DNA from: a virus
Virus genome (UHGV): UHGV-0178594
DNA: 64,000 nucleotides
Reading direction: 5' to 3' (one strand)
Shown here piece by piece: positions 38,394 to 59,518 of the stretch. A program made the position numbers and the translations under genes. How positions within the stretch are numbered: the first letter of the stretch is position 1; each line of letters begins with the position of its first letter. Under the pieces are notes generated by a model. It saw nothing but the letters and a program-made list of their open reading frames with translations, searched no databases and was not told the DNA's origin.

Positions 38394-38399
38394 ATTGGC

Positions 38400-38640: not shown

Positions 38641-38706
38641 CCCGTTTTTCTAAGGTGCCGTAGAAATATACCCCACGATAATGCCAGGGCGCAACTGTGT
38701 GTTTTC

Positions 38707-39195: not shown

Positions 39196-39218
39196 TGTTA
39201 GAAAATTAATTTATCAAT
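39196..39218. promoter_or_regulatory. Operator-like element TGTTAGAAAATTAATTTATCAAT overlapping the ref stop codon
   Basis: Nearly identical to the element overlapping the dre stop codon at 58095. Confidence 0.4.
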
Positions 39219-39823
39219 TCAGTCACCATCTGATACAACGTCATTTCATCAGCATTGTGCCGCCTGAAATCTGCTTTGCCGCCTATTTTTCCATCAGCAT
39301 GAACAGGAACCAACCAGGGGTATTGCTCGCGGATCTCTGCTGGCGCTGCGTGTTGATGGTGCCATTTACACAAAGGGAGGACGTATTTATGCGCGTTCTC
39401 TGCTGTTCTCCCGAAGATGTGGTGCAGGGATACCACAGGGCTATGCTGTCCGTGCATATGGCAGGCAATGCAGGGGAGAGCACCGATGGCAGTTTGTATC
39501 CGGCGCTCATCTGCTGTGAGTGTTCTGCCTTTCAGGCCGCGTGACGCGCGAGTTTTTTTGACAGGAGCAGAAGCGGCCTTCTCTTTTCTTCGCTGTTCAT
39601 ATTGCTTCGCTTTTTCAATTTTCTTTTGCCGATATTCAGGCGATGCGGCTTTTTCTCGCGCACGCTGCTGCTGGCGTTGAGCTTGCTGAAGACGCTTTGC
39701 CCTTTGTTCCTCCCGCCATTTCGGATCAGCCAGTTTTTGCAGGGCTTTTTGTGTCTGTTTCTCCCAATAGCTTTGCTTCATAGAAATACCCGGTTTGTCT
39801 ACATCGCCGCTATGGTTGATCAA
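39206..39823 (-). CDS. ref: Ref-like HNH endonuclease (recombination enhancement function)
   Basis: K/R/Q-rich disordered N-terminal ~80 aa followed by HNH-type core ..CIACHMHG..HHIFGR..CKWHH..; matches the described architecture of P1 Ref. Confidence 0.6.
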   Translation of the reverse strand: MINHSGDVDKPGISMKQSYWEKQTQKALQKLADPKWREEQRAKRLQQAQRQQQRAREKAASPEYRQKKIEKAKQYEQRRKEKAASAPVKKTRASRGLKGRTLTADERRIQTAIGALPCIACHMHGQHSPVVSLHHIFGRTAENAHKYVLPLCKWHHQHAAPAEIREQYPWLVPVHADGKIGGKADFRRHNADEMTLYQMVTELIN

Positions 39824-39825
39824 AT

Positions 39826-39857
39826 GTGTTAGAAAATCAAAATTGATTTTCTAACAC
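39826..39857. promoter_or_regulatory. Near-perfect 32-bp palindrome GTGTTAGAAAATCAAAATTGATTTTCTAACAC directly upstream of ref
   Basis: 15-bp arms are exact reverse complements; 3 bp from the ref start. Confidence 0.55.
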
Positions 39858-39898
39858 AAAATGAAGATACTTTTTTTCAGACGCTATATCAGGAGGTC

Positions 39899-40054
39899 AT
39901 GATGCTTGTCGCAATAAGTGCAATCCACCAGCAATCCGGTACAGAAATTGGGTTGCTATATGCCCTGTTTTTCACTGTCCTGGCGTTGTTTGAGCTGGGC
40001 ATTGAACTCTTTGCTCTCATCAACTTTTGCGTAACGTTCCTGGGGAAACTTTGA
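39899..40054 (+). CDS. Small hydrophobic peptide (51 aa), translationally coupled to the next gene
   Basis: AGGAGG RBS at 39891, ATGATG start, TGATG stop/start overlap at 40052-40056; hand-translated MMLVAISAIHQQSGTEIGLLYALFFTVLALFELGIELFALINFCVTFLGKL. Confidence 0.3.
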   Translation: MMLVAISAIHQQSGTEIGLLYALFFTVLALFELGIELFALINFCVTFLGKL

Positions 40055-40665
40055 TGTCAAAACGCATTATGAAAATTTACATCGCGGGTCCGATGACTGG
40101 TTATCCCGACTACAACCGCACAGCGTTTTTTTCGAAAGCAAAAGAGCTGATGGAGGTAGGGCATATTGTTCTGAATCCGGCGCTGTTACCTGCTGGCCTC
40201 TGCGAGAGCGAATACATGGATATTTGCCTTGCAATGGTGCGTTCGGCTAATGCGGTCTATTTGCTCAAGGGGTGGGAGGAATCAGTTGGCGCTCGTGCAG
40301 AGCACGAGCTGGCTCAAAAGCTGGGGCTGAATGTAATTTATGAGTCACCAACCAACATTGAATGCCAGGTTGCTCCGCATATTTACCGGGAACTGGTCAA
40401 TGCACTGCGTGATATCGCTGCTGTATATCACGGCACAGAACAGCTTCGTGAGCGTTTAGCCCATACCATTTCCTATTACCTGTCTGCATCTCATGAGCAC
40501 AAGCTCCGTCAGAAGGTAATGATCAAATTTATCATGAGGTTATCGAAATCCCTGGCAAACGCCGATCCAAAGAATCCATTACCGAAAGTGGCAATGAATT
40601 ACCTGAAGTCCTGCAACATTGTTTCTGAAGATGGCGTTCTTTTGGTTAGAAGGAGTTCTGCGTGA
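40054..40665 (+). CDS. DUF4406-like (nucleoside 2-deoxyribosyltransferase-like fold) protein
   Basis: N-terminal ..KIYIAGPMTGYPDYNRTAFF..GHIVLNPA.. motif; C-terminal half unassigned. Confidence 0.45.
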   Translation: MSKRIMKIYIAGPMTGYPDYNRTAFFSKAKELMEVGHIVLNPALLPAGLCESEYMDICLAMVRSANAVYLLKGWEESVGARAEHELAQKLGLNVIYESPTNIECQVAPHIYRELVNALRDIAAVYHGTEQLRERLAHTISYYLSASHEHKLRQKVMIKFIMRLSKSLANADPKNPLPKVAMNYLKSCNIVSEDGVLLVRRSSA

Positions 40666-41012
40666 GCTGGCGGGGATGGGGAAGGGCAGAAATCATGATA
40701 CTCCGCCAGTGCGCCGGGACTATGACAGTCGAGGGTATTGGGAGACTGATCGGGCGTACCGGTGGTGCTGTCAGGACTAAAGCGCGGCAATTGCGGATCA
40801 GCATGATTCTGAAAGGTGACTTTCACCAGTCAGCCAAATACCGGCAGAGCGATATAGAGCTGGCGCGGCAGCTTCATCAGTGTGGCGTTCCCCGCCGTGA
40901 GATCGCAGAAAAACTCGAAATGCCCCTGGGCATGATTAATCAGTACGTTTATTTCGAAAGGAGAGTGCATGAAGTCAGAAGGTTTAACGCCCGCACAACT
41001 GGCAGAGCGTAA
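40662..41012 (+). CDS. Hypothetical protein with HTH-like segments
   Basis: 116-aa ORF. Confidence 0.3.
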   Translation: MSWRGWGRAEIMILRQCAGTMTVEGIGRLIGRTGGAVRTKARQLRISMILKGDFHQSAKYRQSDIELARQLHQCGVPRREIAEKLEMPLGMINQYVYFERRVHEVRRFNARTTGRA

Positions 41013-41478
41013 CGCTGAGTATGTAACGGAAATTTCCCGACTTGAGAAAGAGCGCGCGGCGCTGGCGGCAGAGAATGCGACACTGAAGGCGATATGTGAG
41101 GACCGCCGCACGTTCATCATGAATGGCGTGCTGCTTGGTTTTATCCAGATGCCAACAGCGGAAATAGATCCAGCTCTTGAAACAATTCGTGTCGCCCTAT
41201 CACCACAAAATCCTACCCCTGCGACCGACGCTTTCTTGGATGAAATGAAGACTGAAGCACGCAAGGAAGGGGCTTACTTTGTGGCGAACAGAATGTTGGC
41301 TGCCTGGAAAGCTGGTTTTATTGATGATACTGCGAAGAACGCCGCGGATATTGCCCGGATGATTCTTACCTCTACTGATTTTATGGCTAATGCGCCGGAA
41401 GGAGATTTTGACCGCTCATTCTCTGATGGCGTTCTCGAAGATATCGCTGAACAGCTTCGTAAAGGAGTCATCCAGTGA
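40969..41478 (+). CDS. Modular coiled-coil protein, family member 1 (Ea22-like?)
   Basis: Coiled coil ..LEKERAALAAENATLKA..; C-terminus ..[10 protein letters not shown] shared with paralogs. Confidence 0.4.
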   Translation: MKSEGLTPAQLAERNAEYVTEISRLEKERAALAAENATLKAICEDRRTFIMNGVLLGFIQMPTAEIDPALETIRVALSPQNPTPATDAFLDEMKTEARKEGAYFVANRMLAAWKAGFIDDTAKNAADIARMILTSTDFMANAPEGDFDRSFSDGVLEDIAEQLRKGVIQ

Positions 41479-42197
41479 GCGAAATTAATTACCAGGCACT
41501 GCGTGAGGCGGCGGAACGTGCAATTCCAGCAATGGAACGCCTGTTAATGTTGCCAGCTGATGATGATTTGTTAAGTGAACAGGAACTTAAAGATTACGGT
41601 GTGGATATTGATGCGCTCAACGCCTTCAAATTTCTGGCCGGACCAGAAACCGTGCTGGCACTACTGGATGAACGGGAAAGAAACCAGCAATACATCAAAT
41701 CTCGCGACCAGGAGAACGAGGATATTGCGCTAACGGTAGGGAAGCTGTTAATCGAAAACGGTCAGCTTGTTGCCGATACGCTACGCCACTTAGCTGATAA
41801 CGAAATCGACTCTGATTATTTTGCTATCACCTCAACTAATGAGAACGGTACTGAAATTGATCATGAGATGTCTATTACCGATTACGCACTGCAAGCTGCC
41901 GGAACTGTAGACGAATTGGTTGCGGCGCTGGAAGCCGCAAAATCAAAACTCAACGAGCAGCGTGAATATTACGAGGGAGTAATCGCGGATGGAAGTAAGC
42001 GCATAGCAGAGTTAGAAAGTGGTTCTCAGGCACAAAAGTTAGTTGAAGCAATCATTGTTGCGATAGAAAACGAACAGGAACGTCTTTTTGATGAAGATTA
42101 CCTAATGGATTCGAAAGAATGCATTGACGTAATTCGTGAAGAAGTAAAGCGATGGAATGATTCCCGCGCCGCTGGCATTCGCATCAAAGGAGAGTGA
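41475..42197 (+). CDS. Modular coiled-coil protein, family member 2
   Basis: GTG start inside the GTGA junction; N-terminus [13 protein letters not shown] shared with 47610. Confidence 0.4.
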
Positions 42198-42198
42198 G

Positions 42199-42522
42199 AT
42201 GACCACATCGCATTCTGCAATCACCCAGGAAAAAGTATTTCGCTTGCTCGAACGTCTGGAGGCGCTCGCCACGGAGGAGGATATATCCCCGGAGATGCTG
42301 GTCGAGTGCAGCCGTGTGATATTGCGTCGCAAGAACGACATCGCGCGGCTGACATCTGGCGCACAATCCGTATCAGCCAGTCCAACGCTTTATTGCAGCT
42401 TCTGCAACAAATCCCAGCACACCGTTAAAAAGTTAATTGCCGGGGACAACGTTTTCATCTGCAACGAGTGCGTGAAAGATTGCAACAACATTATCCAGGA
42501 AGAGCAAAGGGAATCAGCATGA
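42199..42522 (+). CDS. Small protein with C-terminal ClpX-type C4 zinc-binding domain
   Basis: ..[39 protein letters not shown].. closely matches the remembered N-terminal zinc-binding domain of E. coli ClpX; no AAA+ module follows. Confidence 0.55.
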
Positions 42523-43229
42523 AATTTTCCAAATTCTCGGAGTTGGTGAATCGTATTTTGTCCAACAACCACAGCCATCGTCGCGATATGGATGTAACGA
42601 TCGTTGTTCATTCGCCTGGTCGCATCGGTTCAACACCATCAGTTGAGGTTCAGTCAATTCAGGTGGGTTTTGATTGGGATGCCGGGAAAGTGCTGATTTT
42701 CCCAGCACAGCCACTGACCACGCTAACACCAGAACAGATTACTGATATTACGGATAGTGTGCGCAAAGGTCAGTCTTGGCACGCATATCAGGAATACAAG
42801 AAGCATAAAGAGCAGTTGGAAAAATTGTCGATTGAACTGGATGCTGCAAGACGGCGCATTACAGAACTGGAGAGCGAACGCGCGGTGCTGGCGGCGGAGA
42901 ATGCGGAGCTGAAGTCTGTGCACCCTCAACCATTCGGAGCTGAGATGATGAAGGCTCTTGATGCGTATGAGAAGCATCAGGATGAAGTGCCAGAGACTGG
43001 AATGCTCAATGCATTTTTCATCTTGCGCGACAGTATCCGTGTTGACACCCCAGCCACCGATGCTTTCCTGGCTGAAGTACGTGCGCAGGGCGTGGATATG
43101 GCTCGTAACGCGATGATTGATTTTGTCGATGGTGAAGTTGGGCCAAACAAGAACGTTCCGGGGCTGATTAGAGGCGCAGAGATATGCGTAAGTATTGCTG
43201 AACAGCTTCGCAAAGGAGGCAGCCAGTGA
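42519..43229 (+). CDS. Modular coiled-coil protein, family member 3
   Basis: ..[18 protein letters not shown]..; C-terminus ..[10 protein letters not shown]; ATGA overlap with the previous gene. Confidence 0.4.
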
Positions 43230-43501
43230 ATATCGACACGACAATAACGATCGATACGCTCCTAAATACCGGTCTGGCACTTCTCGGTTGGCTTTACATC
43301 ATGTCCCGTACATGGCGATGGCTGGGTTCCATTTTCCTAAAACAGTGGAAAAAACGGCGCAAACAGGAACTACGTCAGAAGGCATTAGAAGCGTTCTATG
43401 ACGCATTTGAGCTTAGCCGCATTGAACCAGGTACAACAGCCAGGATAGCGACAAAAGGCGACCTGATGATAGTGATGTTCAGACAGGAGAAAACAAAATG
43501 A
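43226..43501 (+). CDS. Small membrane protein
   Basis: 91 aa with one TM segment (LALLGWLYIM); GTGA junction start. Confidence 0.3.
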   Translation: MNIDTTITIDTLLNTGLALLGWLYIMSRTWRWLGSIFLKQWKKRRKQELRQKALEAFYDAFELSRIEPGTTARIATKGDLMIVMFRQEKTK

Positions 43502-43722
43502 CAGAACAGACGATGACAAATCGCGAACTTGTTGATGCCGCGATTGAACTTGCTGGCGATTTTTATTCCATGTTGGGTTACGAGCATCGACCTGGTTTTA
43601 AGTATTGGGAGTCACCGCATCCGCAAGAACAACAGGTGTTTGAAATGGCCTGCCGTGCTTTTGAGGTTATTCGCGGTTCTGATGTGATGGAGGCCGTTGC
43701 CGACTTGGAGGATGAAGAGTGA
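43498..43722 (+). CDS. Hypothetical protein
   Basis: 74-aa ORF, 4-bp overlaps on both sides. Confidence 0.3.
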   Translation: MTEQTMTNRELVDAAIELAGDFYSMLGYEHRPGFKYWESPHPQEQQVFEMACRAFEVIRGSDVMEAVADLEDEE

Positions 43723-44030
43723 GCATCATTAAAGAAATGCCGGTAGAACGTGATGAATATGGCTGCTGGACACATCCGGAGTATGAAAAGTTTTGCGCAG
43801 GTCGTGAATATATATCCACTGAGGAATTTGACGCCTGGATGAAGGAAAATAATCTTCAGTGGACTATTCGCAGTATGGATGAAGATCATTTTAATCTGGA
43901 CGCAGATGGTCCCGATATTGCCGCCTGGGAACCAGAGCGACCAGAGGGCGAAGGATGGTTTGTTGGCTCTATTCATGACACTGAAGATGGCCCGGTTTGT
44001 ATCTGGCTGCGGGAGAAGGTTGCCGCATGA
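43719..44030 (+). CDS. Hypothetical protein
   Basis: 103-aa ORF. Confidence 0.3.
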
Positions 44031-44713
44031 CCCAGGCGCTGCATGAAGTGAATTTATATAGCCGTATTGATGGTTCAGGCTACAGAAACATATGGGTTGT
44101 TGGTGATCTGCATGGTTGCTACACCAGATTGATGTCTGAACTTCATCGTGTGGACTTTGACCCGACACAGGATTTACTGATATCGGTTGGCGACCTTATC
44201 GATCGCGGCACCGAAAATGTTGAATGCCTGGAGCTATTGCAGATGCCCTGGTTTCGGTCGGTTATGGGAAACCACGAGCGATTAATGATCGATGCGTTAA
44301 GCCCCGCAGGCAACGTGAATAACTGGCTAATGAATGGCGGCCAATGGTTCTTCATGCTGGACGCTGATCGGGAAATATTAGCCAGGGCGCTGGTGGAGCT
44401 GGTAAAGCGTCTGCCCTATATCATTGAGTTGAACACCGGGCATGAAACTATCGTTATAGCCCATGCCGACTATCCTGATAACGAATACCAGTTTGGTAAA
44501 CCTGTTAGCGATCTCAATGTTACCTGGCGGCGTGAGCGATTTTATGACGCGGTTGATGGTGTTGGTGGAATGATCACTGGTGCAGATAGCTTTATTTTCG
44601 GGCATACGCCAGTAAACAGCCCGAAATCTTTCTGGAACCAGCACTACATAGACACTGGCGCGGTTTTTTGCGGAAATCTGACGCTAAAGCAGGTGAAGGG
44701 AGGCCAGCCGTAA
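44027..44713 (+). CDS. Ser/Thr protein phosphatase (calcineurin-like metallophosphatase, lambda PPase-like)
   Basis: Motifs ..VVGDLHGC.., ..GDLIDRG.., ..GNHE..; start at ATG 44027 inside the listed 43997 ORF. Confidence 0.75.
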
Positions 44714-44744
44714 TCCTGAACACATCGTTTATGCACTCAAAACC

Positions 44745-44775
44745 GTGTTAGAATATTGATTTTAATTTTCTAACA
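44745..44775. promoter_or_regulatory. Operator-like palindrome GTGTTAGAATATTGATTTTAATTTTCTAACA upstream of the 44818 gene
   Basis: Member of the recurring motif family. Confidence 0.45.
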
Positions 44776-44817
44776 TATTATTTTACCGCTCGGAACAAAA
44801 CAGAGTCGGTATACATT

Positions 44818-45813
44818 ATGAGTGCAATAATCACACCTCATTTCGTAAACGGAGCTGGTGTGGCTGTCTTTCCGGTAGACAAGCCCACCAGCAACTACAT
44901 TGGCGCAGGTCGCCGTTTCATTATCTCTCCACTTCCGCGCGAACAGGCTGAAAACACGCCAGATGGCGTAGTGGATCTGAACTATTCGCTGGTTGCCAAC
45001 CAGTCTCTGAAAGCATTTTTTCAAAGCGAGCGCGTATTTAACGCATTAGGCGGTGAAGATTCGCTTGTTCATTGGGTAAGTTCCAATATCCACGATTGCC
45101 AGGCGCACGATAAGCGCGATTGCAGCCACCAGCTAACCACTCATTTCTATAACGGCTCTGCCGTTCGCCTGTGCTGGAAGCATGATGCGGAATACATGAT
45201 GAAGGGGTACGGCAAGCTGGATGACCAGTTATCCCTAAATCGTGCCAACTGGGTTATGAACTGGGCTGCGAGCGAGTTAAAACTACCGCCAGAACGCGAT
45301 CTGAGCATGGTTGAACTCACTTTTTGGGCCATTCGCCGGAATCTGAAAGACGAGCTGCCAGATGAAGCCGGTCGCATTGCATTTTGTCAGCCAAAACAGG
45401 AAATCCCTACCGGCACACTGAAAGAATCGGATATCACCTGGGAGCACAGCACCCGTGAGCTGGTGGACATAACCGCAGAGCAGATCGTCAACCTGTCTGT
45501 AGATGAGGATTCCGGCCTGCTGTATATGCGCCGACCAAAAGCGGTTCTCGGTAAAAGCCCGGCTTATCTCCGGTTTGTGATTTCTCGTCCGTGCATCGGA
45601 TGCGGAGGCAAAGTTAATCACCCGTTCATGTACCGCGCCCGCTCGTTAAACGAACACGATCGCTGGGCCGTTCCTCTTTGCGATGAATGCGCCAGAAGCG
45701 CAGAAAACGATGTCCGGGCATGGGAAAAAGCACATGGCATACGCCTTTACGTAGCCGCCAACCAGCTTTTCGACTTCGCCATCGAGCGCGGAGTGATCAC
45801 GTTCAATAACTGA
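44818..45813 (+). CDS. Hypothetical protein with C-terminal Cys cluster
   Basis: 331 aa; ..RPCIGCGGKVNH..VPLCDEC.. Confidence 0.35.
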   Translation: MSAIITPHFVNGAGVAVFPVDKPTSNYIGAGRRFIISPLPREQAENTPDGVVDLNYSLVANQSLKAFFQSERVFNALGGEDSLVHWVSSNIHDCQAHDKRDCSHQLTTHFYNGSAVRLCWKHDAEYMMKGYGKLDDQLSLNRANWVMNWAASELKLPPERDLSMVELTFWAIRRNLKDELPDEAGRIAFCQPKQEIPTGTLKESDITWEHSTRELVDITAEQIVNLSVDEDSGLLYMRRPKAVLGKSPAYLRFVISRPCIGCGGKVNHPFMYRARSLNEHDRWAVPLCDECARSAENDVRAWEKAHGIRLYVAANQLFDFAIERGVITFNN

Positions 45814-45817
45814 TGGA

Positions 45818-46396
45818 GTGGATCAAAAAATGAAAGAACGCGGGATGATTTTTAACGATGAGATGGTCCGGGCAATTCTTGGCGGGAATAAAACACAGAC
45901 TCGCAGGATTGTTGAAGAAAAATTCTATGGACGAGCAGTTGCCGCAGAGTTGCTTGCCAAGCATTGTCCATATGGTCAACCGGGCGATCGTATTTGGGTT
46001 CGCGAAACCTACCGGGTACATGGCAAAGCGACGGACGTCGCAACGCTGGTTTATCGCGCAAGCGTGCGTAACTCCTGGACAGAACAAACGCACCGGGTTC
46101 CGGTCGATGTTTGTAATAAACCAGTATCAGAAAAGTGGACGCCATCAATTCACATGCCGCGCTGGGCATCGCGCATTCTTCTGGAAATTACCGACGTGCG
46201 TGTGGAACGGCTGCATGACATGAGCGAGGCAGATGCTAAAGCAGAAGGCGCAACTCCGGCGACGTACAAGATTACGCCACCTGAAGCTGTTTATCGCGTT
46301 GGTTTTGGTGATATCTGGCGCAGTATTTACGGGCAGGATAACTGGCTATCTAACCCGTGGGTATGGGTAATCGAGTTTAAGCGCATTCAGGAATAA
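45818..46396 (+). CDS. ASCH-like prophage protein
   Basis: N-terminal ..MIFNDEMVRAILGGNKTQTRR.. signature common in enterobacterial prophage proteins. Confidence 0.4.
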   Translation: MDQKMKERGMIFNDEMVRAILGGNKTQTRRIVEEKFYGRAVAAELLAKHCPYGQPGDRIWVRETYRVHGKATDVATLVYRASVRNSWTEQTHRVPVDVCNKPVSEKWTPSIHMPRWASRILLEITDVRVERLHDMSEADAKAEGATPATYKITPPEAVYRVGFGDIWRSIYGQDNWLSNPWVWVIEFKRIQE

Positions 46397-46479
46397 ACCG
46401 TGAGTATGCATCAAATCGTCAGTTTTTCAGGTGGACGAGCATCGGCCTGTCTCGTTCATCTGTTCGAAGAGGTAGTGGA

Positions 46480-46683
46480 ATGACAATCGTAAAAACCCAT
46501 ACCGGTACCGTGATCACCAAAGATGGCCCGCAGGTAAAAAAACTGCACCAAACAGAGCGGATGTGGGTCGTTGGCAAAAACGAGTTTTACCACAAAGAAA
46601 CTGGACGCCGCCATTTTGCAGAAAATACGCGCCGCCGACTGCTGTTAGACACCATCAAGCCTATCGAGGTGAAGCATGTTTAA
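46480..46683 (+). CDS. Hypothetical small protein
   Basis: 67-aa ORF. Confidence 0.3.
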   Translation: MTIVKTHTGTVITKDGPQVKKLHQTERMWVVGKNEFYHKETGRRHFAENTRRRLLLDTIKPIEVKHV

Positions 46684-46915
46684 ACAGAACGAAAAAGCTA
46701 TCGCTCAAATTGCTGATTATATCCCGCGTGCGTGCCGAGGTATGCAGTTGCAGGAAGCCAAAGCGCGCCTGGAGAAAAAAATTGCGCTCTATATTGATGA
46801 CGGCTGTGATGCCGCCGTTCTTAACGCGGCGTTCGCACCAGCTCTTAACCGTCATACTCGGGAGTCTTTTTTTTCGTGCATCGCAGCGCAACTCCGCAAA
46901 GGAGGCAACCAGTGA
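46676..46915 (+). CDS. Small protein sharing the family C-terminus ..AAQLRKGGNQ
   Basis: 79 aa; ends in the GTGA junction. Confidence 0.35.
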   Translation: MFKQNEKAIAQIADYIPRACRGMQLQEAKARLEKKIALYIDDGCDAAVLNAAFAPALNRHTRESFFSCIAAQLRKGGNQ

Positions 46916-47178
46916 GTGAGTCAAAATGCCAAATTAATGGCAACAAGATAGAACCGTGCGCGGCGTTGACGCAATCCCTGGAACATGACGCTGAATACAC
47001 GACGCGAAAAGGTCTGCTGAAATACAAAATCTATAACCATGCATTAATTCATTCACAAGACCTGATCATGCTGCGGTCAGGCGAGTTTTCTAAATCGCCG
47101 ATTCGAATTTCATTTTGCCCGTTCTGTGGTGAAAGTCTGAAAACGTGGGAAGCGGAGGCAACCAGTGATCAAAATTAA
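46912..47178 (+). CDS. Small protein with CPFCG zinc-ribbon-like motif
   Basis: GTG start in the GTGA junction. Confidence 0.3.
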   Translation: MSESKCQINGNKIEPCAALTQSLEHDAEYTTRKGLLKYKIYNHALIHSQDLIMLRSGEFSKSPIRISFCPFCGESLKTWEAEATSDQN

Positions 47179-48838: not shown

Positions 48839-48848
48839 AGCATAAATT

Positions 48849-49361: not shown

Positions 49362-49362
49362 T

Positions 49363-49572: not shown

Positions 49573-50633
49573 CCACTTTAACCGACAAAGAACTGATTAA
49601 AGAAATCAAAGAGCGAATCGGCAGCCTGGACGTGCGAGACAATATTGAGCGCCGTGCTTATGAAATTGCTCTGGCATCGCTGGAGGCAGAGCCAGTGGCA
49701 AAAATTATAGCTCACTACCCATTAGGAATTGACGTAGGCAAACAAAAGTTCGTACAGGCCATTGGAGAGCTTCCTGACTTTGGAGGATATCTATTCGCCG
49801 CTCCACCTGTGCCGGTAACACAGGCTAATGTCGCGCAAGCAATTGAAAATCTTAAGCAGAAGTTAGTGGAATGCAATCGCTATAACTACTGCGCAGATGC
49901 AGTTAAAGATGTTGAGGATGCCAGCCGCGTCTTGGCACTCCAAAATCAAAATATGTCAGCACCGATAACGCAGGAGGCCATTGAAAACGCAATTGAATAT
50001 ATCCGCAGTATTGCTTTTCACATCGATGAAGACGATTACCACGGCAAGCATATTGCGTATTTCATGCGACAAGCACTGGTCTGGCTGGAAGGGCATTCAT
50101 GCAGCGACGACAGACAGGATAAAGCCGAGAATCAACCAGTACGCGGTAACCAGGCTGCCGAATCCAATCGCGGTAATGAGTGGACCGGCAATCCTGATAT
50201 TGATAACGCCATCATCATGCTTGACCGCATAGATACGGCGGAAAGTTACGATGATGACCGTATTGAGGCTGTTAAGGCTGTTTTGCGTAGACTGGCAGGC
50301 AACTCTCCGGTAATTCCGGATGGTTTATCCACGGTATGCGCTGAGGCTTATCAGGTTGTAGGAGTTATGGCAGATGCGCTTGGTGTATTCGGTGATGCAG
50401 CAGTACAGAAAGTTCTGGATAACCTGTCACAGCAAAAACTTGTTCACAGAGATGTGCTGCCGTTCTCGCTTCCGGTAACTCCGGATGGTTGGGTTATGGT
50501 TCCTAAACAGGTAACGCCGGAAATCAGCAACGCGATAAACGTTGTGGGTCAACGCTGTACATGCGGAAATTGCTCTCAGCGGTTGTGGGATTTATTACTC
50601 GACGCCACACAGCAAGGAGTTAACCGTGGCTAA
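49569..50633 (+). CDS. Hypothetical protein
   Basis: 354-aa ORF. Confidence 0.35.
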   Translation: MTTLTDKELIKEIKERIGSLDVRDNIERRAYEIALASLEAEPVAKIIAHYPLGIDVGKQKFVQAIGELPDFGGYLFAAPPVPVTQANVAQAIENLKQKLVECNRYNYCADAVKDVEDASRVLALQNQNMSAPITQEAIENAIEYIRSIAFHIDEDDYHGKHIAYFMRQALVWLEGHSCSDDRQDKAENQPVRGNQAAESNRGNEWTGNPDIDNAIIMLDRIDTAESYDDDRIEAVKAVLRRLAGNSPVIPDGLSTVCAEAYQVVGVMADALGVFGDAAVQKVLDNLSQQKLVHRDVLPFSLPVTPDGWVMVPKQVTPEISNAINVVGQRCTCGNCSQRLWDLLLDATQQGVNRG

Positions 50634-50809
50634 CCTGCAACTTATCCTCAAAGGTGAAAAGATTTGAGGATTCGCATCATTAATAACACCGACAAGCATC
50701 CGGATGATTATTTGGATTGCTCGTTAGCAGAGCGCGTGGAATTGATATAAGAGAATCTCCGCGCATCGGCAACACACAGCTAAATATGTTCGCAATAAAG
50801 GGTAAATCA

Positions 50810-51211
50810 ATGGCTAAATTTCGGAGAACTATTATTTTTCTGGCAATGTTATCTGCCTGCCATTTATCACATGCATCGGTTATTGTTGCAACCGCCGCAA
50901 CAACGGCAGCAATTAGCGCCTCAGCCGCAAGCGAGCAGGAGCAACGCACTGCAATCAATGCATCCGCAAATACTACCACTGTAGCAGTCACGCAAGATAA
51001 GCCAAATATAGGCTTTGTTACTTGCGGAAAACGGTATGGAGAGACGGTCGGTTCTCTTGGTTGCGCAGTGTGGCATGACGAACGAGCAGAAATTCCGTGG
51101 AAATCATGGCCTGGTTACATTCTTGGCGAAAAGATACCCACCAGCTATGAAGTAAATGCTATTTCGTTCGACCAATATAACAGAGTCGCAACGGTCTACT
51201 TTTCTTATTAA
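50810..51211 (+). CDS. Lipoprotein candidate
   Basis: From ATG 50810: MAKFRRTIIFLAMLSAC.. (lipobox-like LSAC). Confidence 0.35.
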   Translation: MAKFRRTIIFLAMLSACHLSHASVIVATAATTAAISASAASEQEQRTAINASANTTTVAVTQDKPNIGFVTCGKRYGETVGSLGCAVWHDERAEIPWKSWPGYILGEKIPTSYEVNAISFDQYNRVATVYFSY

Positions 51212-51217
51212 CACGGA

Positions 51218-51517
51218 GTGATTATGTGGCGCGGTAATAATCATGGCAGAAGCCATATGATACTTACCGAATATAAGCTAGACCACAAAACCAATAAATC
51301 ACGCTCAGTATATTTGCTCCGGCACAATAGCCGCGTAAGGAATACCGTGCTGGAGCAATATCTGACCGTTGAAATGGATAATTTCGGGAATTTCAAGCCA
51401 ACAATATCGCTTGATGATTTCCCTCGTGGTTTAAGCGAAAGAGAAGCAATGCTGAAATTAGCAGAATGGCTACAAAGATTGAGCATTGTTATTGAAGATA
51501 ACTGGAGTCAACCATAA
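51218..51517 (+). CDS. Hypothetical protein
   Basis: 99-aa ORF. Confidence 0.3.
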   Translation: MIMWRGNNHGRSHMILTEYKLDHKTNKSRSVYLLRHNSRVRNTVLEQYLTVEMDNFGNFKPTISLDDFPRGLSEREAMLKLAEWLQRLSIVIEDNWSQP

Positions 51518-51693
51518 TGAAAAACAGAAAGAAATTTTGGATTACTTTTTTGTTTGTATGCCTTTGCGGTTCATTTGTTTTGTTGGCTGGTGGTGTTGAA
51601 TGGGGAACGATGGGATGTGGAGTTGGGAGTGGCTTTACGCTTCTTGCAGCCTGGGTTATCGCTGGCGTTCAGTCTGGAGGAGGGTATTACTAA
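51517..51693 (+). CDS. Small membrane protein (58 aa)
   Basis: TAATG overlap with the previous gene; MKNRKKFWITFLFVCLCGSFVLLAGG.. hand-translated. Confidence 0.25.
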   Translation: MKNRKKFWITFLFVCLCGSFVLLAGGVEWGTMGCGVGSGFTLLAAWVIAGVQSGGGYY

Positions 51694-51713
51694 GTAATTT
51701 TATTACCCCCTTC

Positions 51714-51765
51714 ATAACGGATATCACTCTCGTGATAACGGATATTCCAATTTTGATAACGGATA
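51714..51765. promoter_or_regulatory. Three direct repeats ATAACGGATA spaced 21 bp upstream of the 51773 gene
   Basis: Copies at 51714, 51735, 51756. Confidence 0.45.
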
Positions 51766-51772
51766 AAGCCAA

Positions 51773-51982
51773 ATGAGGCATTTTTTAAGGCTGGCATTTG
51801 TTCTGGCGCTATTTGCTCCTCCGGCTGCGATGGCTGGAGAACAGCAGCACTGTGTAACTGAATCAGAGAATCTTGTAATAGTCACTCAATGCGATGACGG
51901 AACGGTGACCGTGGTTAATGTACGAGATAACCGTGTAGCCGTGTGTCGTAAAGGCGAATCATGCAAGGAGATAAAGCTATGA
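51773..51982 (+). CDS. Small secreted Cys-containing protein
   Basis: Signal-peptide-like MRHFLRLAFVLALFAPPAAMA. Confidence 0.3.
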   Translation: MRHFLRLAFVLALFAPPAAMAGEQQHCVTESENLVIVTQCDDGTVTVVNVRDNRVAVCRKGESCKEIKL

Positions 51983-52743
51983 CCAAAATCACTAAAGAGC
52001 GTATATCAGAGATTATTTCCCGTATCGAAATGTATGGTCACGGTGCTGGATATACGGCAGATGAAGTATTGGCGCTTGCCAAAATAGCGTTAGCGCCTTG
52101 CAAGGATGGTAACGGAATGACACTGATTGACTTTTTAGTGAAGGAATTATCTAAGGGAGCTGGATGGCCTGATGGAAAAGATTTTTGCTATCTACCCATT
52201 CCGCTGGCAGGTTGTAGTTGGGCTACGGTTCGTTTTGATACGCGCCATAAAAATTACCAATCATCAAAGAATTATTCCTTTGATGGCATTATTTGCGATA
52301 TCAGTGACCTTGATCGCAGTGCGTTTACATCGGTTGTCACTCGTGAACAATATGAAGCAGCTCGCATAGCGTCTCAGAAAGTCGAGTTCAATGGTGATGA
52401 ACTTGAAAGTAAGGCTTACAAGTTAGATTTTGAGCAATGGCTGGAACAGCAACGCGGGAAAATCGATGTGGACTGCGGTTGTGTGTCTGCGGAAACATTC
52501 ATGCACTGGTTGCGGGTAGCTTATGAGGCTGGCAACCATCCGGATTTTCCGGATAGTTCCCAACAATCGCCCAAGAAAAGCGTAAAAACCTCTCTGGAAA
52601 GAGGCTATCTTGAGGCCGCATTAAAGATTAAGCCGGGCCATACGCTAGGCGTCATTGATGCCATGTTGGTTCATGAAATGGCTAAGGCTTTATTGCCACT
52701 GGTAGCAGATCAACATGAGGCGAGTCATGCCAACGAAAGCTGA
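51961..52743 (+). CDS. Hypothetical protein
   Basis: 260-aa ORF. Confidence 0.3.
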   Translation: MQGDKAMTKITKERISEIISRIEMYGHGAGYTADEVLALAKIALAPCKDGNGMTLIDFLVKELSKGAGWPDGKDFCYLPIPLAGCSWATVRFDTRHKNYQSSKNYSFDGIICDISDLDRSAFTSVVTREQYEAARIASQKVEFNGDELESKAYKLDFEQWLEQQRGKIDVDCGCVSAETFMHWLRVAYEAGNHPDFPDSSQQSPKKSVKTSLERGYLEAALKIKPGHTLGVIDAMLVHEMAKALLPLVADQHEASHANES

Positions 52744-53011
52744 ACTACAGACGCGTGTAGAGGAACTTGAAAAAGAGAACACTGGCCTCAAAAAAATGCT
52801 GGCACGGGCAGAAAGGGAGTTATCTGGCAAACTTCTGCCAGAAGAACTGCCACCAGCAGATATACCAAAGCGAGTGTCTCGGTGGATGAAGTCTTTTTGT
52901 TTGCCGTGGGAGGCGTTTTGGTGCTACGACCATCGCAGATGGTGTGATGAACTTGATAGCAGTTTTCCCTACTTTGCGGAAGGTAACACCTGCCCTCAAT
53001 GCAGGGGATAG
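52715..53011 (+). CDS. Hypothetical protein with coiled coil and Cys-rich C-terminus
   Basis: 98-aa ORF. Confidence 0.3.
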   Translation: MRRVMPTKAELQTRVEELEKENTGLKKMLARAERELSGKLLPEELPPADIPKRVSRWMKSFCLPWEAFWCYDHRRWCDELDSSFPYFAEGNTCPQCRG

Positions 53012-53346
53012 CATTTAACGAAATCGATCACCCTATCCTGAACTTCGGAAAGAAGGTATTTTTCACGAGCCAGGACGTCAGGATATTGACGTTCTGGCCT
53101 TACCAGATGCCGGAGCTTCCCATTAAGCAGAATGGCCTCAGAAAACACTTTTACGCTGTGCTTTATCCCCTCTGTTTCACTTTTCAGCGTCAAAATAAAG
53201 CGCAATTGCTTGTTAGCCTGATTCAGATTCAATACCCGAATTTGCAGTTCGTCTATGCTATTTCGCAATGGGATTGATGCCACCACACTGGTGCAGTCTC
53301 TGATTGTCTGAATTGAACGGCTAACATTGAGAACGTTATTGTGCAT
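52996..53346 (-). CDS. Paralog of the lxr-position protein, encoded on the opposite strand
   Basis: 116 aa; shares ..RS.QTIR..T.VV.S.P.. pattern and length with 53654-54004. Confidence 0.3.
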   Translation of the reverse strand: MHNNVLNVSRSIQTIRDCTSVVASIPLRNSIDELQIRVLNLNQANKQLRFILTLKSETEGIKHSVKVFSEAILLNGKLRHLVRPERQYPDVLAREKYLLSEVQDRVIDFVKCYPLH

Positions 53347-53378
53347 GTGCCTGATCCACTAACTCCGGGAGGTTTCTT

Positions 53379-53651
53379 GTGTCAGATCGAAATATAGCAG
53401 CTAAAAGCAAGGAAGAGCGAGACAAGGTGAACGTAGACCTTGCCGCCAGCGGCGTTGCTTACAAAGAACGGCTGAATATACCTGTGATTGCAGAGCAGGT
53501 GGCCCGTGAGCAACCGGAAAACCTGCGCGCCTATTTCATGGAACGGCTACGGCACTACCGGCTGTTAAGCCTCCAGTTGCCAAAAGGGAGCGATCCGGTG
53601 TATCAGAACGAGGATGCGAAAAAAAATAACGGCAAGATGGGGGAGACTTAA
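53379..53651 (+). CDS. hot: DNA polymerase III theta-subunit homologue
   Basis: ..[43 protein letters not shown].. closely matches remembered E. coli HolE. Confidence 0.8.
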
Positions 53652-53653
53652 AC

Positions 53654-54004
53654 ATGCTTAACTATCACGACAACACGCGTTCTATGCAGACAATCCGCAC
53701 CAATACAGCGGTGGTCGATAGCTTTCCTGTACATACTCAAGGCCGTGAAGATACCGTGGAAGTGCGACGCATGTTGTGTCGCCGGTCACCGGGCCACCAG
53801 CACTTCATCGTAACGTTTAAAAGCGATGTAGAGCGCGCCGAGAAAATCTCTAACTCCACATCTCTGGTTAAGCCGTTAGCGGAGGTTATTGTGCGCAACA
53901 ATAAGGCGCGCTTTGTCCTTGAGGAGCATCATTCTGATTTTAATGAAAAAATCGAGTCAAGCATTTTGCAATATATGAATGGCACGTTCACGCCACCAAT
54001 GTGA
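53654..54004 (+). CDS. Hypothetical protein at the position of P1 lxr (between hot and humD)
   Basis: 116-aa ORF; assignment by position only. Confidence 0.35.
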   Translation: MLNYHDNTRSMQTIRTNTAVVDSFPVHTQGREDTVEVRRMLCRRSPGHQHFIVTFKSDVERAEKISNSTSLVKPLAEVIVRNNKARFVLEEHHSDFNEKIESSILQYMNGTFTPPM

Positions 54005-54067
54005 TTAGCCCCCAGCGTGGCGCGCGTACAAACCCCGCTTTCACAAACTATGCCTTTTCAATGTATA

Positions 54068-54083
54068 CTGTATGAATAAACAG
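54068..54083. promoter_or_regulatory. LexA box CTGTATGAATAAACAG upstream of humD
   Basis: Exact CTGT-N8-ACAG SOS-box architecture 21 bp upstream of the humD ATG. Confidence 0.6.
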
Positions 54084-54103
54084 TATTATTGAGGTAAAAC
54101 GCT

Positions 54104-54493
54104 ATGGGCTTCCCTTCTCCTGCGGCGGATTATGCAGAGAGCCGTATTTCTCTTGATCAGCAACTAATCAGACATCCTTCTGCGACCTACTTCATGCGGG
54201 CGGCAGACAGCCATCACCGTGAGGGAATATTGCAAGGTGCTTTGCTGGTGGTTGATTCCTCACTTACTCCGGTTGATGGTTCACTGCTTATATGCGCTAT
54301 GGAGGGTGAATATCGCATAAAGAGATACAGGAAGTATCCGCGCCAGCACCTGGAGGATTTAAGCACCGGGAAGAAAGAGGCGTTACCAGTGGATGACGAT
54401 GGATACACGGGCAGTAATGCTGTTTTTGGTGTGATCACTCATGTCATCAATGATGCCCGAAGTGGGGAATTTGATGATTGTCCGGTTATTTAA
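54104..54493 (+). CDS. humD: UmuD'-like protein
   Basis: MGFPSPAADY..LIRHPSATYF.. and ..VFGVITHV.. collinear with the C-terminal part of UmuD, lacking the cleavable N-terminus. Confidence 0.85.
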   Translation: MGFPSPAADYAESRISLDQQLIRHPSATYFMRAADSHHREGILQGALLVVDSSLTPVDGSLLICAMEGEYRIKRYRKYPRQHLEDLSTGKKEALPVDDDGYTGSNAVFGVITHVINDARSGEFDDCPVI

Positions 54494-54565
54494 GCTGCAA
54501 AGTGCTGGTGCTTTATGCCTGTGAAGTTTATAATTGTGTACACATAACGAGTACACGAGGTGTTT

Positions 54566-54787
54566 ATGCAATCCATTAACTTCCGTACCGCGCGCGGCAA
54601 CCTTTCTGAAGTGCTCAACAATGTTGAAGCCGGGGAAGAGGTTGAAATCACCCGCAGAGGCCGTGAGCCAGCAGTAATTGTCAGCAAGGCTACTTTCGAA
54701 GCCTACAAAAAAGCGGCGCTGGATGCTGAATTTGCATCCCTGTTTGACACCCTGGACTCCACCAACAAGGAACTGGTTAACCGATAA
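54566..54787 (+). CDS. phd: Phd antitoxin
   Basis: [39 protein letters not shown].. matches remembered P1 Phd; TAATG overlap with doc. Confidence 0.9.
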
Positions 54788-55167
54788 TGAGGCATATATC
54801 ACCGGAAGAACTTATTGCGCTTCATGATGCGAATATAAACCGCTACGGCGGCCTGCCGGGAATGTCAGATCCGGGTAGGGCAGAGGCCATTATCGGGAGA
54901 GTTCAGGCAAGAGTTGCCTACGAAGAGATCACCGACCTTTTCGAAGTCTCCGCAACCTACCTGGTGGCTACAGCGAGAGGGCATATATTCAATGATGCCA
55001 ATAAGCGTACCGCGCTAAACAGTGCGCTGCTATTTCTACGCCGTAACGGTATACAGGTATATGATTCTCCCGTGCTGGTGGAACTTGCGGTGGGGGCTGC
55101 AACTGGTGAAATCCCCGTATCTTCAGTAGCGGAAAAACTACGTGAACTATATGGTTCCAATATTTGA
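54787..55167 (+). CDS. doc: Doc toxin (Fic-fold kinase)
   Basis: [38 protein letters not shown].. matches remembered P1 Doc. Confidence 0.9.
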
Positions 55168-55247
55168 AAAGAAGCCCGCTCAACCAAGCGGGCTTCCTAC
55201 TATCACTCAATGATTTTTTCTGCTGTCAGCCAGCTAATTTCTTGCTT

Positions 55248-56045
55248 TTAGGCGTCAGCATCAGCATCCTCTGCTTCCACATCTGCCGCGACTTCATCGG
55301 ACTGTTCTTCTTTGGCCTGTTCTGCAATCGCCGCACGGCATTTCGCCCTGGCTGTAGCGATGGCCTCAACTTTCACGTCATTAGGAATACTTGAGGTGAC
55401 ATACATATCCAGTTCTTCAGCACGGAATACTGTTTTGTCCAGGAATTCATCAAGCATCCAGGTTAAGGAAAAGTCGCAGGAAATCAGCTCTACTTCGCCT
55501 TCCGCGCCGTTTGGGAAATGGATAAACATCTGCTTGCCCAAGCCAAGCACGCGACAAGCAGCCATCATTACTGCAAGTTCCAGGTCTTTGTTTTCACCTG
55601 CTACTGGTTGATCCACACCAGTAATAGTGCCGTTCAAATGGATATTATATGGCTGATATTTAGAGATGCGTTCTACACGCCATGTGCCGGTTAAGGTTCC
55701 CTGGCGGAAGATTATTGGCGTGACCGAAAGCGACAGCTCTCGAATGAGTTGTTGTGCTATGGCTGGGTCATACAGGGGATCTAACGCGATGCATCCATAA
55801 GACTGCGCCAGTTCAAACAATTCTTCCTGTGTGCACTGAATGTCTCTTGCCGTAATAAAACGTCTGACTCCCGTTTTTCCGTCACGCCAGATAGCAATGC
55901 CATTCTCACTATCTAACTCTTCGTCTAAACCCAGGTATGTAAGGATGGTTCGCTCAATGGTGGCAAAGGGCAGGGACATATCATCGTTTACATCCACCAG
56001 CAGGCCGTTACGCAGGCGATATTGAATGTTTTTGGTATTTTCCAC
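55248..56045 (-). CDS. Hypothetical protein with poly-acidic C-terminal tail
   Basis: 265 aa ending ..EEQSDEVAADVEAEDADADA. Confidence 0.3.
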   Translation of the reverse strand: MENTKNIQYRLRNGLLVDVNDDMSLPFATIERTILTYLGLDEELDSENGIAIWRDGKTGVRRFITARDIQCTQEELFELAQSYGCIALDPLYDPAIAQQLIRELSLSVTPIIFRQGTLTGTWRVERISKYQPYNIHLNGTITGVDQPVAGENKDLELAVMMAACRVLGLGKQMFIHFPNGAEGEVELISCDFSLTWMLDEFLDKTVFRAEELDMYVTSSIPNDVKVEAIATARAKCRAAIAEQAKEEQSDEVAADVEAEDADADA

Positions 56046-56051
56046 GTTAAA

Positions 56052-56702
56052 TCACTCCACAACAAACCAGTCACAGGCCAGTAAATCATCCACAGACGGC
56101 AACCAAACGCTGTCCATATTTTGTGCATCTTTCAATACAAAATGGTCACCATAAGGAACGTGAATGCCGTGTAAATTGACGCTTCCAGCGAGAACTAACC
56201 AGCAGAATTGCTTTTCGCCTTTCCACTCGCGTCGGGCAACTTTCTTGCCTTCCTTCAACCACATTAGCGCATCAGAGAAGTCGGCTGCTTCAAGGTCGAT
56301 TTCTTCTTGCTGGGTGGTGATGCCACCAGCAGAAATAGTTACGCTCCCAGTAAGATTAATCATTACGCCGTTGTCATCCGTAATGATGACCGTGGTTCCA
56401 TTTTTGGAGGCGTCGTTAACCAGGCCATAGCATTCCTCAAATGGTTTCTCCGGGGCATAGAACAGATAACCGTTTTCATAAACGATCAGATACCCGCCAG
56501 TTTTTGGTCGGTGTTTTTGTAAAAACATTGCGTCAACACAAACTGTTGCCCCTTTTGGTTCAACGAGTTCGATGCAGCCCCAAAGTGGGGCATCAGTTAC
56601 TCCGAAAATAACAACATTTTTGATTTTCGATGCACTAACGTTTTTGTGAGCTTTGTATTTGGGAAGGAACTTAAAAAGCTCTTTCGTTGGCATGTTATTC
56701 AT
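56052..56702 (-). CDS. Protein with C-terminal DUF2829-like domain
   Basis: ..FSDALMWLKEGKKVARREWKG..WLP..DLLACDWFV.. resembles the DUF2829 phage domain (from memory). Confidence 0.4.
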   Translation of the reverse strand: MNNMPTKELFKFLPKYKAHKNVSASKIKNVVIFGVTDAPLWGCIELVEPKGATVCVDAMFLQKHRPKTGGYLIVYENGYLFYAPEKPFEECYGLVNDASKNGTTVIITDDNGVMINLTGSVTISAGGITTQQEEIDLEAADFSDALMWLKEGKKVARREWKGEKQFCWLVLAGSVNLHGIHVPYGDHFVLKDAQNMDSVWLPSVDDLLACDWFVVE

Positions 56703-56716
56703 AGCCTTTCCTCTAC

Positions 56717-57211
56717 TTAAAACTTTGCGTACTGAAGCGGTGTACGCTTGATTTCAATGCGGTCTTCCGATGTGCTACCAAAGCCACCAGCACCTCGCTC
56801 TGTTTCATCGAGTTCATCAACTTCTACCAGCGATACCGGTTCAACACGCTCAAAAATGCCTTGCATGACCGCCATTCCTGGCTTGAGGCAAACGCCTTCA
56901 CCACCGGGATCTGTAATCAGTTTTGCTTTGATTTCACCGCGATAATCGGAGTCGATAATTCCTACGCAGTTAGCCAGGCGCGTATGCTTTTTGCAGCCCA
57001 ATCCGGAACGAGGATAAAGTTTCAGACACCAGCCAGGAGGGATCGCCATAGCGAGGCCGGTATGCACCCACCAGCTTGAGGAAATAGCGCCGTTGCTATT
57101 GATACCTGGCGTTATTTCAACAGCAATAAAATCCATCGCCGCCGATCCGGCGGTGGCGTAAACGGGGAGTCTTGCCGCCGGATGAAGGCGTTTCACTTTC
57201 ACGTTAATCAT
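56717..57211 (-). CDS. dut: dUTP pyrophosphatase
   Basis: dUTPase motifs ..ATAGSAAMDF.., ..PRSGLG.., ..GIIDSDYRGE.., ..GGFGSTS.. Confidence 0.85.
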   Translation of the reverse strand: MINVKVKRLHPAARLPVYATAGSAAMDFIAVEITPGINSNGAISSSWWVHTGLAMAIPPGWCLKLYPRSGLGCKKHTRLANCVGIIDSDYRGEIKAKLITDPGGEGVCLKPGMAVMQGIFERVEPVSLVEVDELDETERGAGGFGSTSEDRIEIKRTPLQYAKF

Positions 57212-57696
57212 TGCTTTTTAGCTCTCCGGGTAAATGTATAAATCCGGCGTTTGATATGCGGAGCGGTCGGAACGGAGACGCAGGTATTCTCGATAACACC
57301 TTGTTCCTCCAGCGATCGCACAGCACGCAAGAACTGTGATGCATCACCACCGCCAGACAGCCAGAATTTGCGGGCATAGACGCTGCCATTACGGATAATT
57401 TCTGCGATCACCCGCGCTTGCGTCTGGCTTTCTCGATAGCCAAAGAGTTCTCTTGCCTCTCCTTGTGGGATAGCCAACTGATAGCCTTTCCCGCTACGGT
57501 GACGGACAAAACCGTGAGCAATGAGGTTCTTCAGCTCATTTCGGGTGCGGATACACCCGTACTCAGGGAACTGTGTGTTGATATCACCAGGCTTATGCCA
57601 TTCATCAGGACTATCAGCCAGGAGGGACAGAAGTTTCCCTGACAGCTCAGGATTAGTGGTTGGATAGCAGTTCAGGGATGGGTAGTAAGTTTTCAT
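57208..57696 (-). CDS. Hypothetical protein
   Basis: 162-aa ORF with 4-bp overlaps on both sides. Confidence 0.3.
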   Translation of the reverse strand: MKTYYPSLNCYPTTNPELSGKLLSLLADSPDEWHKPGDINTQFPEYGCIRTRNELKNLIAHGFVRHRSGKGYQLAIPQGEARELFGYRESQTQARVIAEIIRNGSVYARKFWLSGGGDASQFLRAVRSLEEQGVIENTCVSVPTAPHIKRRIYTFTRRAKKQ

Positions 57697-58037
57697 TTGC
57701 GCCCCCTTGCCGGATAGCGCCCGGCATTTGCATCAGGAGCAATGAAGCCGCTGGTGGGGCGAGTGAAAACATGGTTAATTTTCTCGGTCATAGCGCGATA
57801 ATTTTCCTGATAGTGGGCCAGGAGTTTTTCAGCAGCAATGACGGTTACTTTCCGGACGTAGCGTTCAGCTTCCTCCAGATTTCGCCAGTTTTTTTCGAGG
57901 GTAAACACGGGAACGGCATCAAGTCCGGTCATAACACCGAACACCACGACCGCCTGGTCGCGCTTAACGCCCGCAGTGAAGGTTATGGTGTAACCGTCAA
58001 CAGTGAAGCGTTTTGATTCCGTAATACGATTGTGCAA
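57693..58037 (-). CDS. Hypothetical protein downstream of the recombinase gene (cra-like position)
   Basis: 114-aa ORF. Confidence 0.3.
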   Translation of the reverse strand: MHNRITESKRFTVDGYTITFTAGVKRDQAVVVFGVMTGLDAVPVFTLEKNWRNLEEAERYVRKVTVIAAEKLLAHYQENYRAMTEKINHVFTRPTSGFIAPDANAGRYPARGRK

Positions 58038-58094
58038 AGTACCCTCCGCAATAGGCGAGGGTACTTTACATTAAAATGCACTGTCTAAAAAGAT

Positions 58095-58117
58095 TGTTAG
58101 AAAATTAATTTATGAAT
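58095..58117. promoter_or_regulatory. Operator-like element TGTTAGAAAATTAATTTATGAAT overlapping the dre stop codon
   Basis: 19 of 23 positions identical, in one run, to the element at 39196. Confidence 0.4.
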
Positions 58118-59506: not shown

Positions 59507-59518
59507 CGAGTAGGAATA

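Follow-up and report, generated by a model that had tools for sequence, protein, structure and literature searches.

Why should two unrelated genes end in the same sequence? In a 64,000-nucleotide (nt) stretch of the virus genome UHGV-0178594 (hereafter the window), the genes ref and dre both finish within near-identical copies of a 23-nt element that overlaps their stop codons. An initial annotation had drawn attention to this coincidence, and had proposed that the element serves as an operator or terminator for the next transcription unit, or is a recombination junction that mobilized the two genes. Judged by its sequence, the window comes from a D6-like phage-plasmid of the P1 family: from ref to dre it shares 88.8% identity with phage D6, and its identity to E. 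coli plasmids reaches 98.7%. We find that the element belongs to a family of sites dispersed across the phage-plasmid, and suggest that both copies are very probably single (monovalent) operators of the phage-plasmid's own C1-family repressor, of the D6 immunity type. Such a role would explain the common 3′ end of ref and dre.

A repeated element and its dispersed family

The near-identity over the two stop codons is genuine, with corrections to the strand, offset and family size. The sequence reads TGTTAGAAAATTAATTTATCAAT at 39196-39218 and TGTTAGAAAATTAATTTATGAAT at 58095-58117. Both ref and dre lie on the minus strand, so the gene ends read as the reverse complement of the 23-mer as written. 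Within it, the two stop codons occupy different offsets and frames: the ref stop TAA (39206-39208; the protein ends ...TELIN) takes up element positions 11-13, and the dre stop TAA (58110-58112; the protein ends ...LMDS) positions 16-18, leaving 10 nt of coding sequence in the element at ref and 5 nt at dre. Searching both strands of the 64 kb with up to three mismatches, we found only these two matches to TGTTAGAAAATTAATTTAT(C/G)AAT; 100 dinucleotide-preserving shuffles gave 0, and the chance expectation is 0.

The first 14 bases of the element tell a different story. Allowing at most two mismatches, TGTTAGAAAATTAA (extending to 17 bases with TTT) has 12 half-sites at eight places in the window, where chance would give 0.58, and shuffles never had more than three matches; a position-weight scan similarly returned 14 sites of at least 14 bits, against 0.8 in shuffles. 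Four of the eight places are palindromes of 30 base pairs (bp), each made of two inverted copies of the motif, and four are single sites, which commonly continue with TAATTT to form the 17-mer TGTTAGAAAATTAATTT. The 23-mer pair is the best-matching pair of a family with at least 12 half-sites in the window, not a two-copy repeat. Past the 17-nt consensus the two copies read ATCAAT (ref) and ATGAAT (dre), and identity at five of six bases is not significant (P ~0.04 per pair at this base composition); tail identity of at least 8/9 occurs in four of the 66 site pairs. The 23-nt near-identity is the 17-nt family consensus plus a short, unremarkable extension, whose six bases are ordinary coding sequence (Leu-Ile-Asn in ref; Asp-Ser in dre), alike by chance.

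The operator-type sites proper thus lie on the plus strand at 39196-39212, overlapping the ref stop codon, with the 23-mer running on to 39218 inside the ref coding sequence, and at 58095-58111, overlapping the dre stop codon, with the 23-mer running on to 58117. Both carry the consensus TGTTAGAAAATTAATTT. In a check for degenerate palindromes the expected partner half matched at only 5/11 and 2/11 positions at the two copies, so we treat both as single sites. The recognized unit would be the asymmetric stretch of about 17 bp, two of which elsewhere overlap in inverted orientation to form the 30-bp palindromic (bivalent) operators.

The other members of the family are placed as regulatory sites might be. 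The palindrome TGTTAGAAAATCAAAATTGATTTTCTAACA at 39827-39856 occupies the divergent region between ref and a plus-strand operon starting at 40027, and is also present in a Shigella dysenteriae plasmid. Further putative double operators lie at 27690-27719, in a 50-nt gap before hrdC-dmt (the D6 equivalent is at 64116/64145); at 44746-44775, between ppp and a pdcB-like gene; and at 63933-63962, upstream of the late-gene activator lpa, where P1 has Olpa in the equivalent position. Of the remaining single sites, one (18915-18931, minus strand) falls between the major capsid gene and the open reading frame at 18948, and the other (TGTTAGAAAACTAAATC, 59491-59507, plus strand) lies 12 nt before the c1 start codon ATG at 59519, where it is kept in almost all D6-like loci. 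The spacer holding dre, rox and c1 has two weaker copies of the motif, ATTTTGAAAATTAACTTAT and TATTAGAAAATGTA, at 59199-59221 and 59403-59416 (both minus strand), the first of them conserved in D6.

The same distribution recurs in the complete D6 genome, where the weight matrix finds 17 sites of at least 14 bits, 16 of them intergenic or at gene ends. Some of them precede c1, lpa, repL, hrdC-dmt and pmgS; others flank ref on both sides, follow dre, or follow repL, at the head of a second c4-icd-ant operon. Operators are annotated in neither of the D6 GenBank records. A full-text literature search found no relevant description of the motif or of D6 operators, though a prior description is possible.

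The location of the element at the 3′ ends of both genes might still recommend it as their intrinsic terminator. But the element has neither a dyad nor a G+C-rich stem, the folding energies of its RNA at the two copies (-0.3 and -1.0 kcal/mol) are no better than those of shuffles, and terminator scans around both copies did not flag it. The motif is also found ahead of genes, and promoter regions hold it in palindromic form. We consider termination by the element itself hardly credible. The IHF motif and the late-promoter motif (Lpa box) were also considered for the element, and neither fits.

Likeness to the C1 operators of P1

The closest precedent for such a family is the set of C1 operators of P1. 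The P1 reference annotation (GenBank AF234172) includes Oc1a-e, Olpa (formerly Op94), Oref, Omat (formerly Op2b), Oc4 (formerly Op51), OrepL and Obanab (formerly Op72ab), and the first six of these names cover the same kinds of loci as the motif sites of the window and D6: the control regions of c1, lpa, ref, c4-icd-ant and repL, with the repL site being in D6. In both systems the site is an asymmetric 17-bp sequence, used alone or in overlapping inverted pairs; at least a dozen copies are scattered over a phage-plasmid of about 90 kb; the repressor, homologous between the two, is encoded by the same element; and the A+T-rich half, AATwAATTT, is nearly the same. The up to three window sites around c1 (59491 and the two weaker copies) resemble the Oc1a-e cluster.

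The overlap with stop codons has its counterpart too. Omat (P1 2628-2645) overlaps the stop codon of ref, whose coding sequence ends at 2637, and controls the next gene, the same layout as the ref copy in the window; Obanab overlaps the dmt stop codon, and the pdcB and pmgQ stop codons are followed, 2 nt on, by the starts of Olpa and OpmgRa. Operators lying over stop codons are therefore a layout already documented in P1, and add nothing new on mechanism. Among the earlier proposals, that of an operator for the next transcription unit draws clear support: the element carries the dispersed repressor-site motif, sits just upstream of the next minus-strand units, and matches the placement of P1 C1 operators, including that over the ref stop codon.

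The likeness to P1 stops at one half of the site. The right-hand halves of the operators are nearly identical (AATTAATTT in D6, AATAAATTT in P1), whereas the left-hand halves, which would confer specificity, differ (TGTTAGAA in the D6 type, ATTGCTCT in P1). The P1/P7 consensus ATTGCTCTAATAAATTT has no match in the window at up to three mismatches, only its A+T-rich half being similar, so the D6-type sites appear to form a distinct specificity class rather than P1-immunity operators. The second immunity I region of D6 lets the two types be compared at one locus: it has TGTTAGAAAATTAATTT where P1 has Oc4 (AATGCTCTAATAAATTT), followed by sequence homologous to the P51a/P51b promoters and by c4. 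There are lesser differences: double sites span 30 bp here and 28 bp in P1; both window copies point the specificity half towards the downstream promoter, unlike P1; and the ref-side site would serve the immunity I operon here, but serves mat in P1.

The putative D6 operator opposite Oc4 is at 21260-21276 (minus strand), 55 nt after the repL stop codon. The second c4-icd-anti-repressor operon downstream of repL, recognized by the Rfam C4 model and its a1b1 targets, belongs to a D6 region outside the window.

The candidate repressor is encoded beside dre. The c1 gene (59519-60556, plus strand, diverging from dre) encodes a 345-residue D6-type prophage repressor, a distant homolog of P1 C1 (21% identity over 241 residues, BLASTP E = 1e-7) that is annotated in D6 as 'similar to P1 gene C1'. 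A diverged C1 together with a diverged operator set fits both the low C1 identity and the absence of P1-type sites. The D6-type C1 has no Pfam family match, and it falls into phrog_1678 (E = 6e-159), which is labeled 'unknown function'; commonly used libraries thus leave the repressor family effectively without annotation.

A regulator other than C1 might bind the motif, such as a second immunity protein or a host nucleoid protein preferring A+T-rich DNA. The motif is indeed A+T-rich, and the repressor family is as poorly labeled as just described. However, the core of the motif is invariant at bases that are not only A and T (TGTTAG, or CTAACA on the other strand), the motif lies just before c1 itself and at the positions of P1 C1 operators, and it changes along with C1 in distant lineages. 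We therefore think another regulator improbable.

The evidence on conservation and co-variation came from gene-end alignments of 34 sequences at dre (24 distinct rows) and 29 at ref (20 distinct rows). The core, (A)TTTTCTAACA, shows little or no variation among the 20 distinct relatives at ref and the 24 at dre, and the element is thus present at both junctions in the relatives compared. The coding tail varies: the serine codon before the dre stop is TCA, TCG, TCT or TCC, stop codons are TAA, TAG or TGA, and the last ref codons change. Because wobble positions and stop types vary, the tail appears to be constrained only as coding sequence.

Further afield, the position of the site seems to be kept and its sequence to change with the repressor C1. 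A contig whose C1 is 40% identical keeps the core TTAGAAAAT ahead of c1, between c1 and dre, and directly after dre, and contains nine matches to it against 1.65 expected. In a third lineage (IMGVR_UViG_3300025735_000294; C1 35% and Dre 55% identical) we spotted, by reading the sequence, the perfect palindrome TTAGATT-N10-AATCTAA, and then tested it for chance: it occurs exactly twice in 6 kb (2195-2218 and 3535-3558) against 0.03 expected, once between c1 and dre and once 6 nt past the dre stop codon. A third operator specificity seems to occupy the same positions here.

We infer that the element is a D6-type C1 operator from the motif family, its positions matching those of P1, the P1 precedent itself, the c1 homolog beside dre, conservation, and co-variation with C1. 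The family, the positions, the conservation and the precedent are observations; binding by C1, the assignment of promoters and their repression are the steps that we would add to them.

The same comparisons bear on the proposal that ref and dre were mobilized at the element, with the element acting as a recombination junction or module boundary. The neighborhood of ref does differ between the two groups (cre-c8-ref-mat in P1, ref followed by immunity I in D6-like elements), and in four plasmids among the matches listed, dre homology starts at window position 58096 or 58100, at or inside the element. We used 1.2-kb junction fragments as BLAST queries against 72,556 plasmids, of which 119 (ref) and 127 (dre) records covered at least 80% of the query. 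Among the matches listed, homology in D6-like plasmids continues unbroken through the element, as it does in about 30 viral contigs per site. The breaks at the element appear to be secondary: one is the end of an IS26 inserted inside the motif, and another lies at the 5′ edge of the motif in a plasmid with insertion sequence (IS) elements nearby. In other plasmids the break comes 93-218 nt farther downstream (at query positions 383, 414 and 504), a scatter that fits selection for intact dre rather than a hot spot. Boundaries of P1/D6 mosaicism fall at about 41463 and 55124, more than 2 kb from the copies, and the element has neither dyad symmetry nor similarity to rox. A junction that mobilized ref and dre is thus very improbable.

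The IS26 insertion is found in NZ_CP126800, an IncY plasmid of Enterobacter hormaechei, at about 2990-3012, where the IS26 end lies inside the dre-side operator and has removed its TGTTA part; the dre homolog (80% identical) is intact beside a catA2 resistance module.

Candidate promoters and possible read-through beyond ref and dre

What would a repressor bound at the gene ends control? Downstream of the ref copy lies an operon with the layout of the P1-type immunity I operon, isrK-c4-icd-ant (37252-38658, minus strand), comprising an isrK-like RNA (38580-38658), the C4 antisense RNA (38448-38535), an icd-like gene (38178-38393) and the anti-repressor gene (37252-38178), identified by Rfam (77.1 and 61.3 bits), a PHROG match to Ant and the D6 annotation. 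After the dre copy come the minus-strand genes orf117, orf116, dut (dUTPase), orf114 and isaA. An anti-repressor and a dUTPase are the kind of genes that C1 represses. In a lysogen, C1 on 39196-39212 would repress a TTGAAT-N17-TACATT promoter of isrK-c4-icd-ant, and C1 on 58095-58111 would repress a weaker promoter of orf117-orf116-dut-...-isaA, or block read-through from dre, or both. Compactness of the genome alone would account for the overlap with stop codons, since the control region of the following unit would begin inside the end of the gene before it.

The ref-side promoter is a putative sigma-70 promoter on the minus strand (39160-39188) with its -35 hexamer TTGAAT at 39188-39183, a 17-nt spacer, and its -10 hexamer TACATT at 39165-39160; the operator ends 7 nt upstream of the -35 hexamer. 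We read this as a real promoter because the hexamers are conserved and the 17-nt spacer is highly variable. The Shigella dysenteriae plasmid, 73% identical here, has TTGATC-N17-TAAATT in its place. At 8/12 the promoter scores under the threshold of the promoter scan, which flagged nothing next to the ref or dre copy. The candidate promoter for orf117-orf116-dut (58063-58091, minus strand) is weak: TTTTTA (58091-58086), a 17-nt spacer and TAAAGT (58068-58063), proposed from a conserved-variable-conserved pattern in the alignment. Several other pairs of hexamers picked by hand near the dre copy were discarded because they are not conserved; TTTAAT, for instance, reads TTTGCT in most relatives. 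Promoter repression is accordingly less certain at the dre side than at the ref side.

Two RNA structures lie close to these promoters. The stretch from the dre-side operator to orf117 contains a stable hairpin (AAAGTACCCTC...GAGGGTACTTT; 58036-58067, minus strand; RNA fold z = -4.7), whose right arm holds the ribosome-binding site GGAGGG of orf117 and the first two bases of the orf117 start codon TTG. A hairpin containing the ribosome-binding site is kept, with differing sequence, in relatives down to 55% Dre identity, and it may terminate dre transcripts or mask translation of orf117 in read-through RNA. The D6 variant of this hairpin has a G-U pair, which forms on the minus-strand RNA only. 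Beyond the ref copy, a small conserved hairpin, GATTGG-TACA-CCGGTC (39137-39152, minus strand), is followed by a T run in most relatives and starts at about the expected transcript start of the TTGAAT-N17-TACATT promoter; it could be the end of ref transcripts, or the 5′ end of the immunity I RNA.

A repressor at a gene end might also act without occluding a promoter. C1 bound at the ends of ref and dre would then halt polymerase reading through from these genes, keeping the anti-repressor operon and early genes silent, a role compatible with that of an operator. The gp71 protein of mycobacteriophage L5 (cluster A) reportedly works in this way at 'stoperators', which are 13 bp long, lie in one orientation and act on elongating polymerase. 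Like them, the D6-type sites are many asymmetric repressor sites spread genome-wide, in short intergenic gaps, often over start or stop codons, that would silence transcription in the lysogen; unlike them, they come in mixed orientations and as palindromic pairs, have a conserved promoter beside at least the ref copy, and would be bound by an unrelated repressor.

The evidence on such roadblocks is mixed. Both copies are placed precisely where the genes end, no intrinsic terminator separates stop codon and site, and the dre-side promoter is weak. Expression of dre in lysogens is expected by analogy with P1 Cre, so read-through from dre is a real risk. At ref, the site is followed by a promoter with conserved hexamers and a variable spacer, and little read-through is expected because a double operator precedes the gene. 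Orientation, too, argues against roadblocks: in D6, TGTTAG runs along local transcription at the single sites 9082, 10331 and 21276 and against it at 75980, 89948 and 22467, whereas L5 stoperators are oriented one way. Sites of the L5 type were rejected on this account. We consider roadblocks an unlikely explanation for the two copies; a role against dre read-through is reasonable as an alternative, or an addition, at the dre copy.

Several points also weigh against the C1 operators that we prefer. Binding of D6-type C1 at these sites is read from sequence comparison, with no operators in the D6 GenBank records to compare, and the register of the D6 and P1 operators was partly read by hand, since MAFFT offset the two sequences. 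Across the genome, the sites do not all face the same way with respect to the transcription downstream of them. The scan missed the dre-side promoter, which is weak, and Oc4 and Olpa of P1 overlap their -35 hexamers by 3 nt, whereas the ref-side site of the window lies 7 nt upstream of its -35 hexamer.

Proposed operator specificity and neighboring features

We suggest that the D6-type C1 operators hint at how a dispersed operator set and its repressor can shift specificity together. Three types appear in the sequences compared: ATTGCTCT with AATAAATTT in P1, TGTTAGAA with AATTAATTT in D6, and TTAGATT-N10-AATCTAA in the third lineage. Because only one half of the 17-mer has changed in the D6 type, recognition may be modular. 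The P1 supergroup might thus have changed, on at least three occasions, the specificity of C1 and of all its dispersed operators together, the sites staying in place, including those at the stop codons of ref and of cre or dre; we offer this tentatively, as a proposal with somewhat less than even chances. If true, it would provide a tractable natural system for the co-evolution of a repressor and 15-20 scattered operators into a new immunity type.

The consensus TGTTAGAAAATTAATTT should in any case be usable for D6-like phage-plasmids, which are common in plasmid collections from E. coli, Salmonella and Shigella, and whose public records annotate no operators. From it the C1 regulon, immunity type and lysogeny-controlled promoters would become predictable from sequence alone.

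The genes that carry the two sites are themselves readily recognized. The RecA-dependent nuclease gene ref runs from 39206 to 39781 on the minus strand (with an alternative TTG start at 39823) and matches Pfam RecA_dep_nuc (E = 5e-36). The gene dre, at 58110-59138 on the same strand, encodes a 342-residue Cre-family tyrosine recombinase, as identified from the open reading frame list, a profile search and the D6 annotations; a perfect rox site is found by sequence match at 59292-59323. Unlike the P1 immunity I leader, which as annotated is without an isrK-like element, the long leader between the ref-side promoter and c4 in the window contains the isrK-like Hfq-binding small RNA (Rfam RF01394, 61.3 bits; minus strand).

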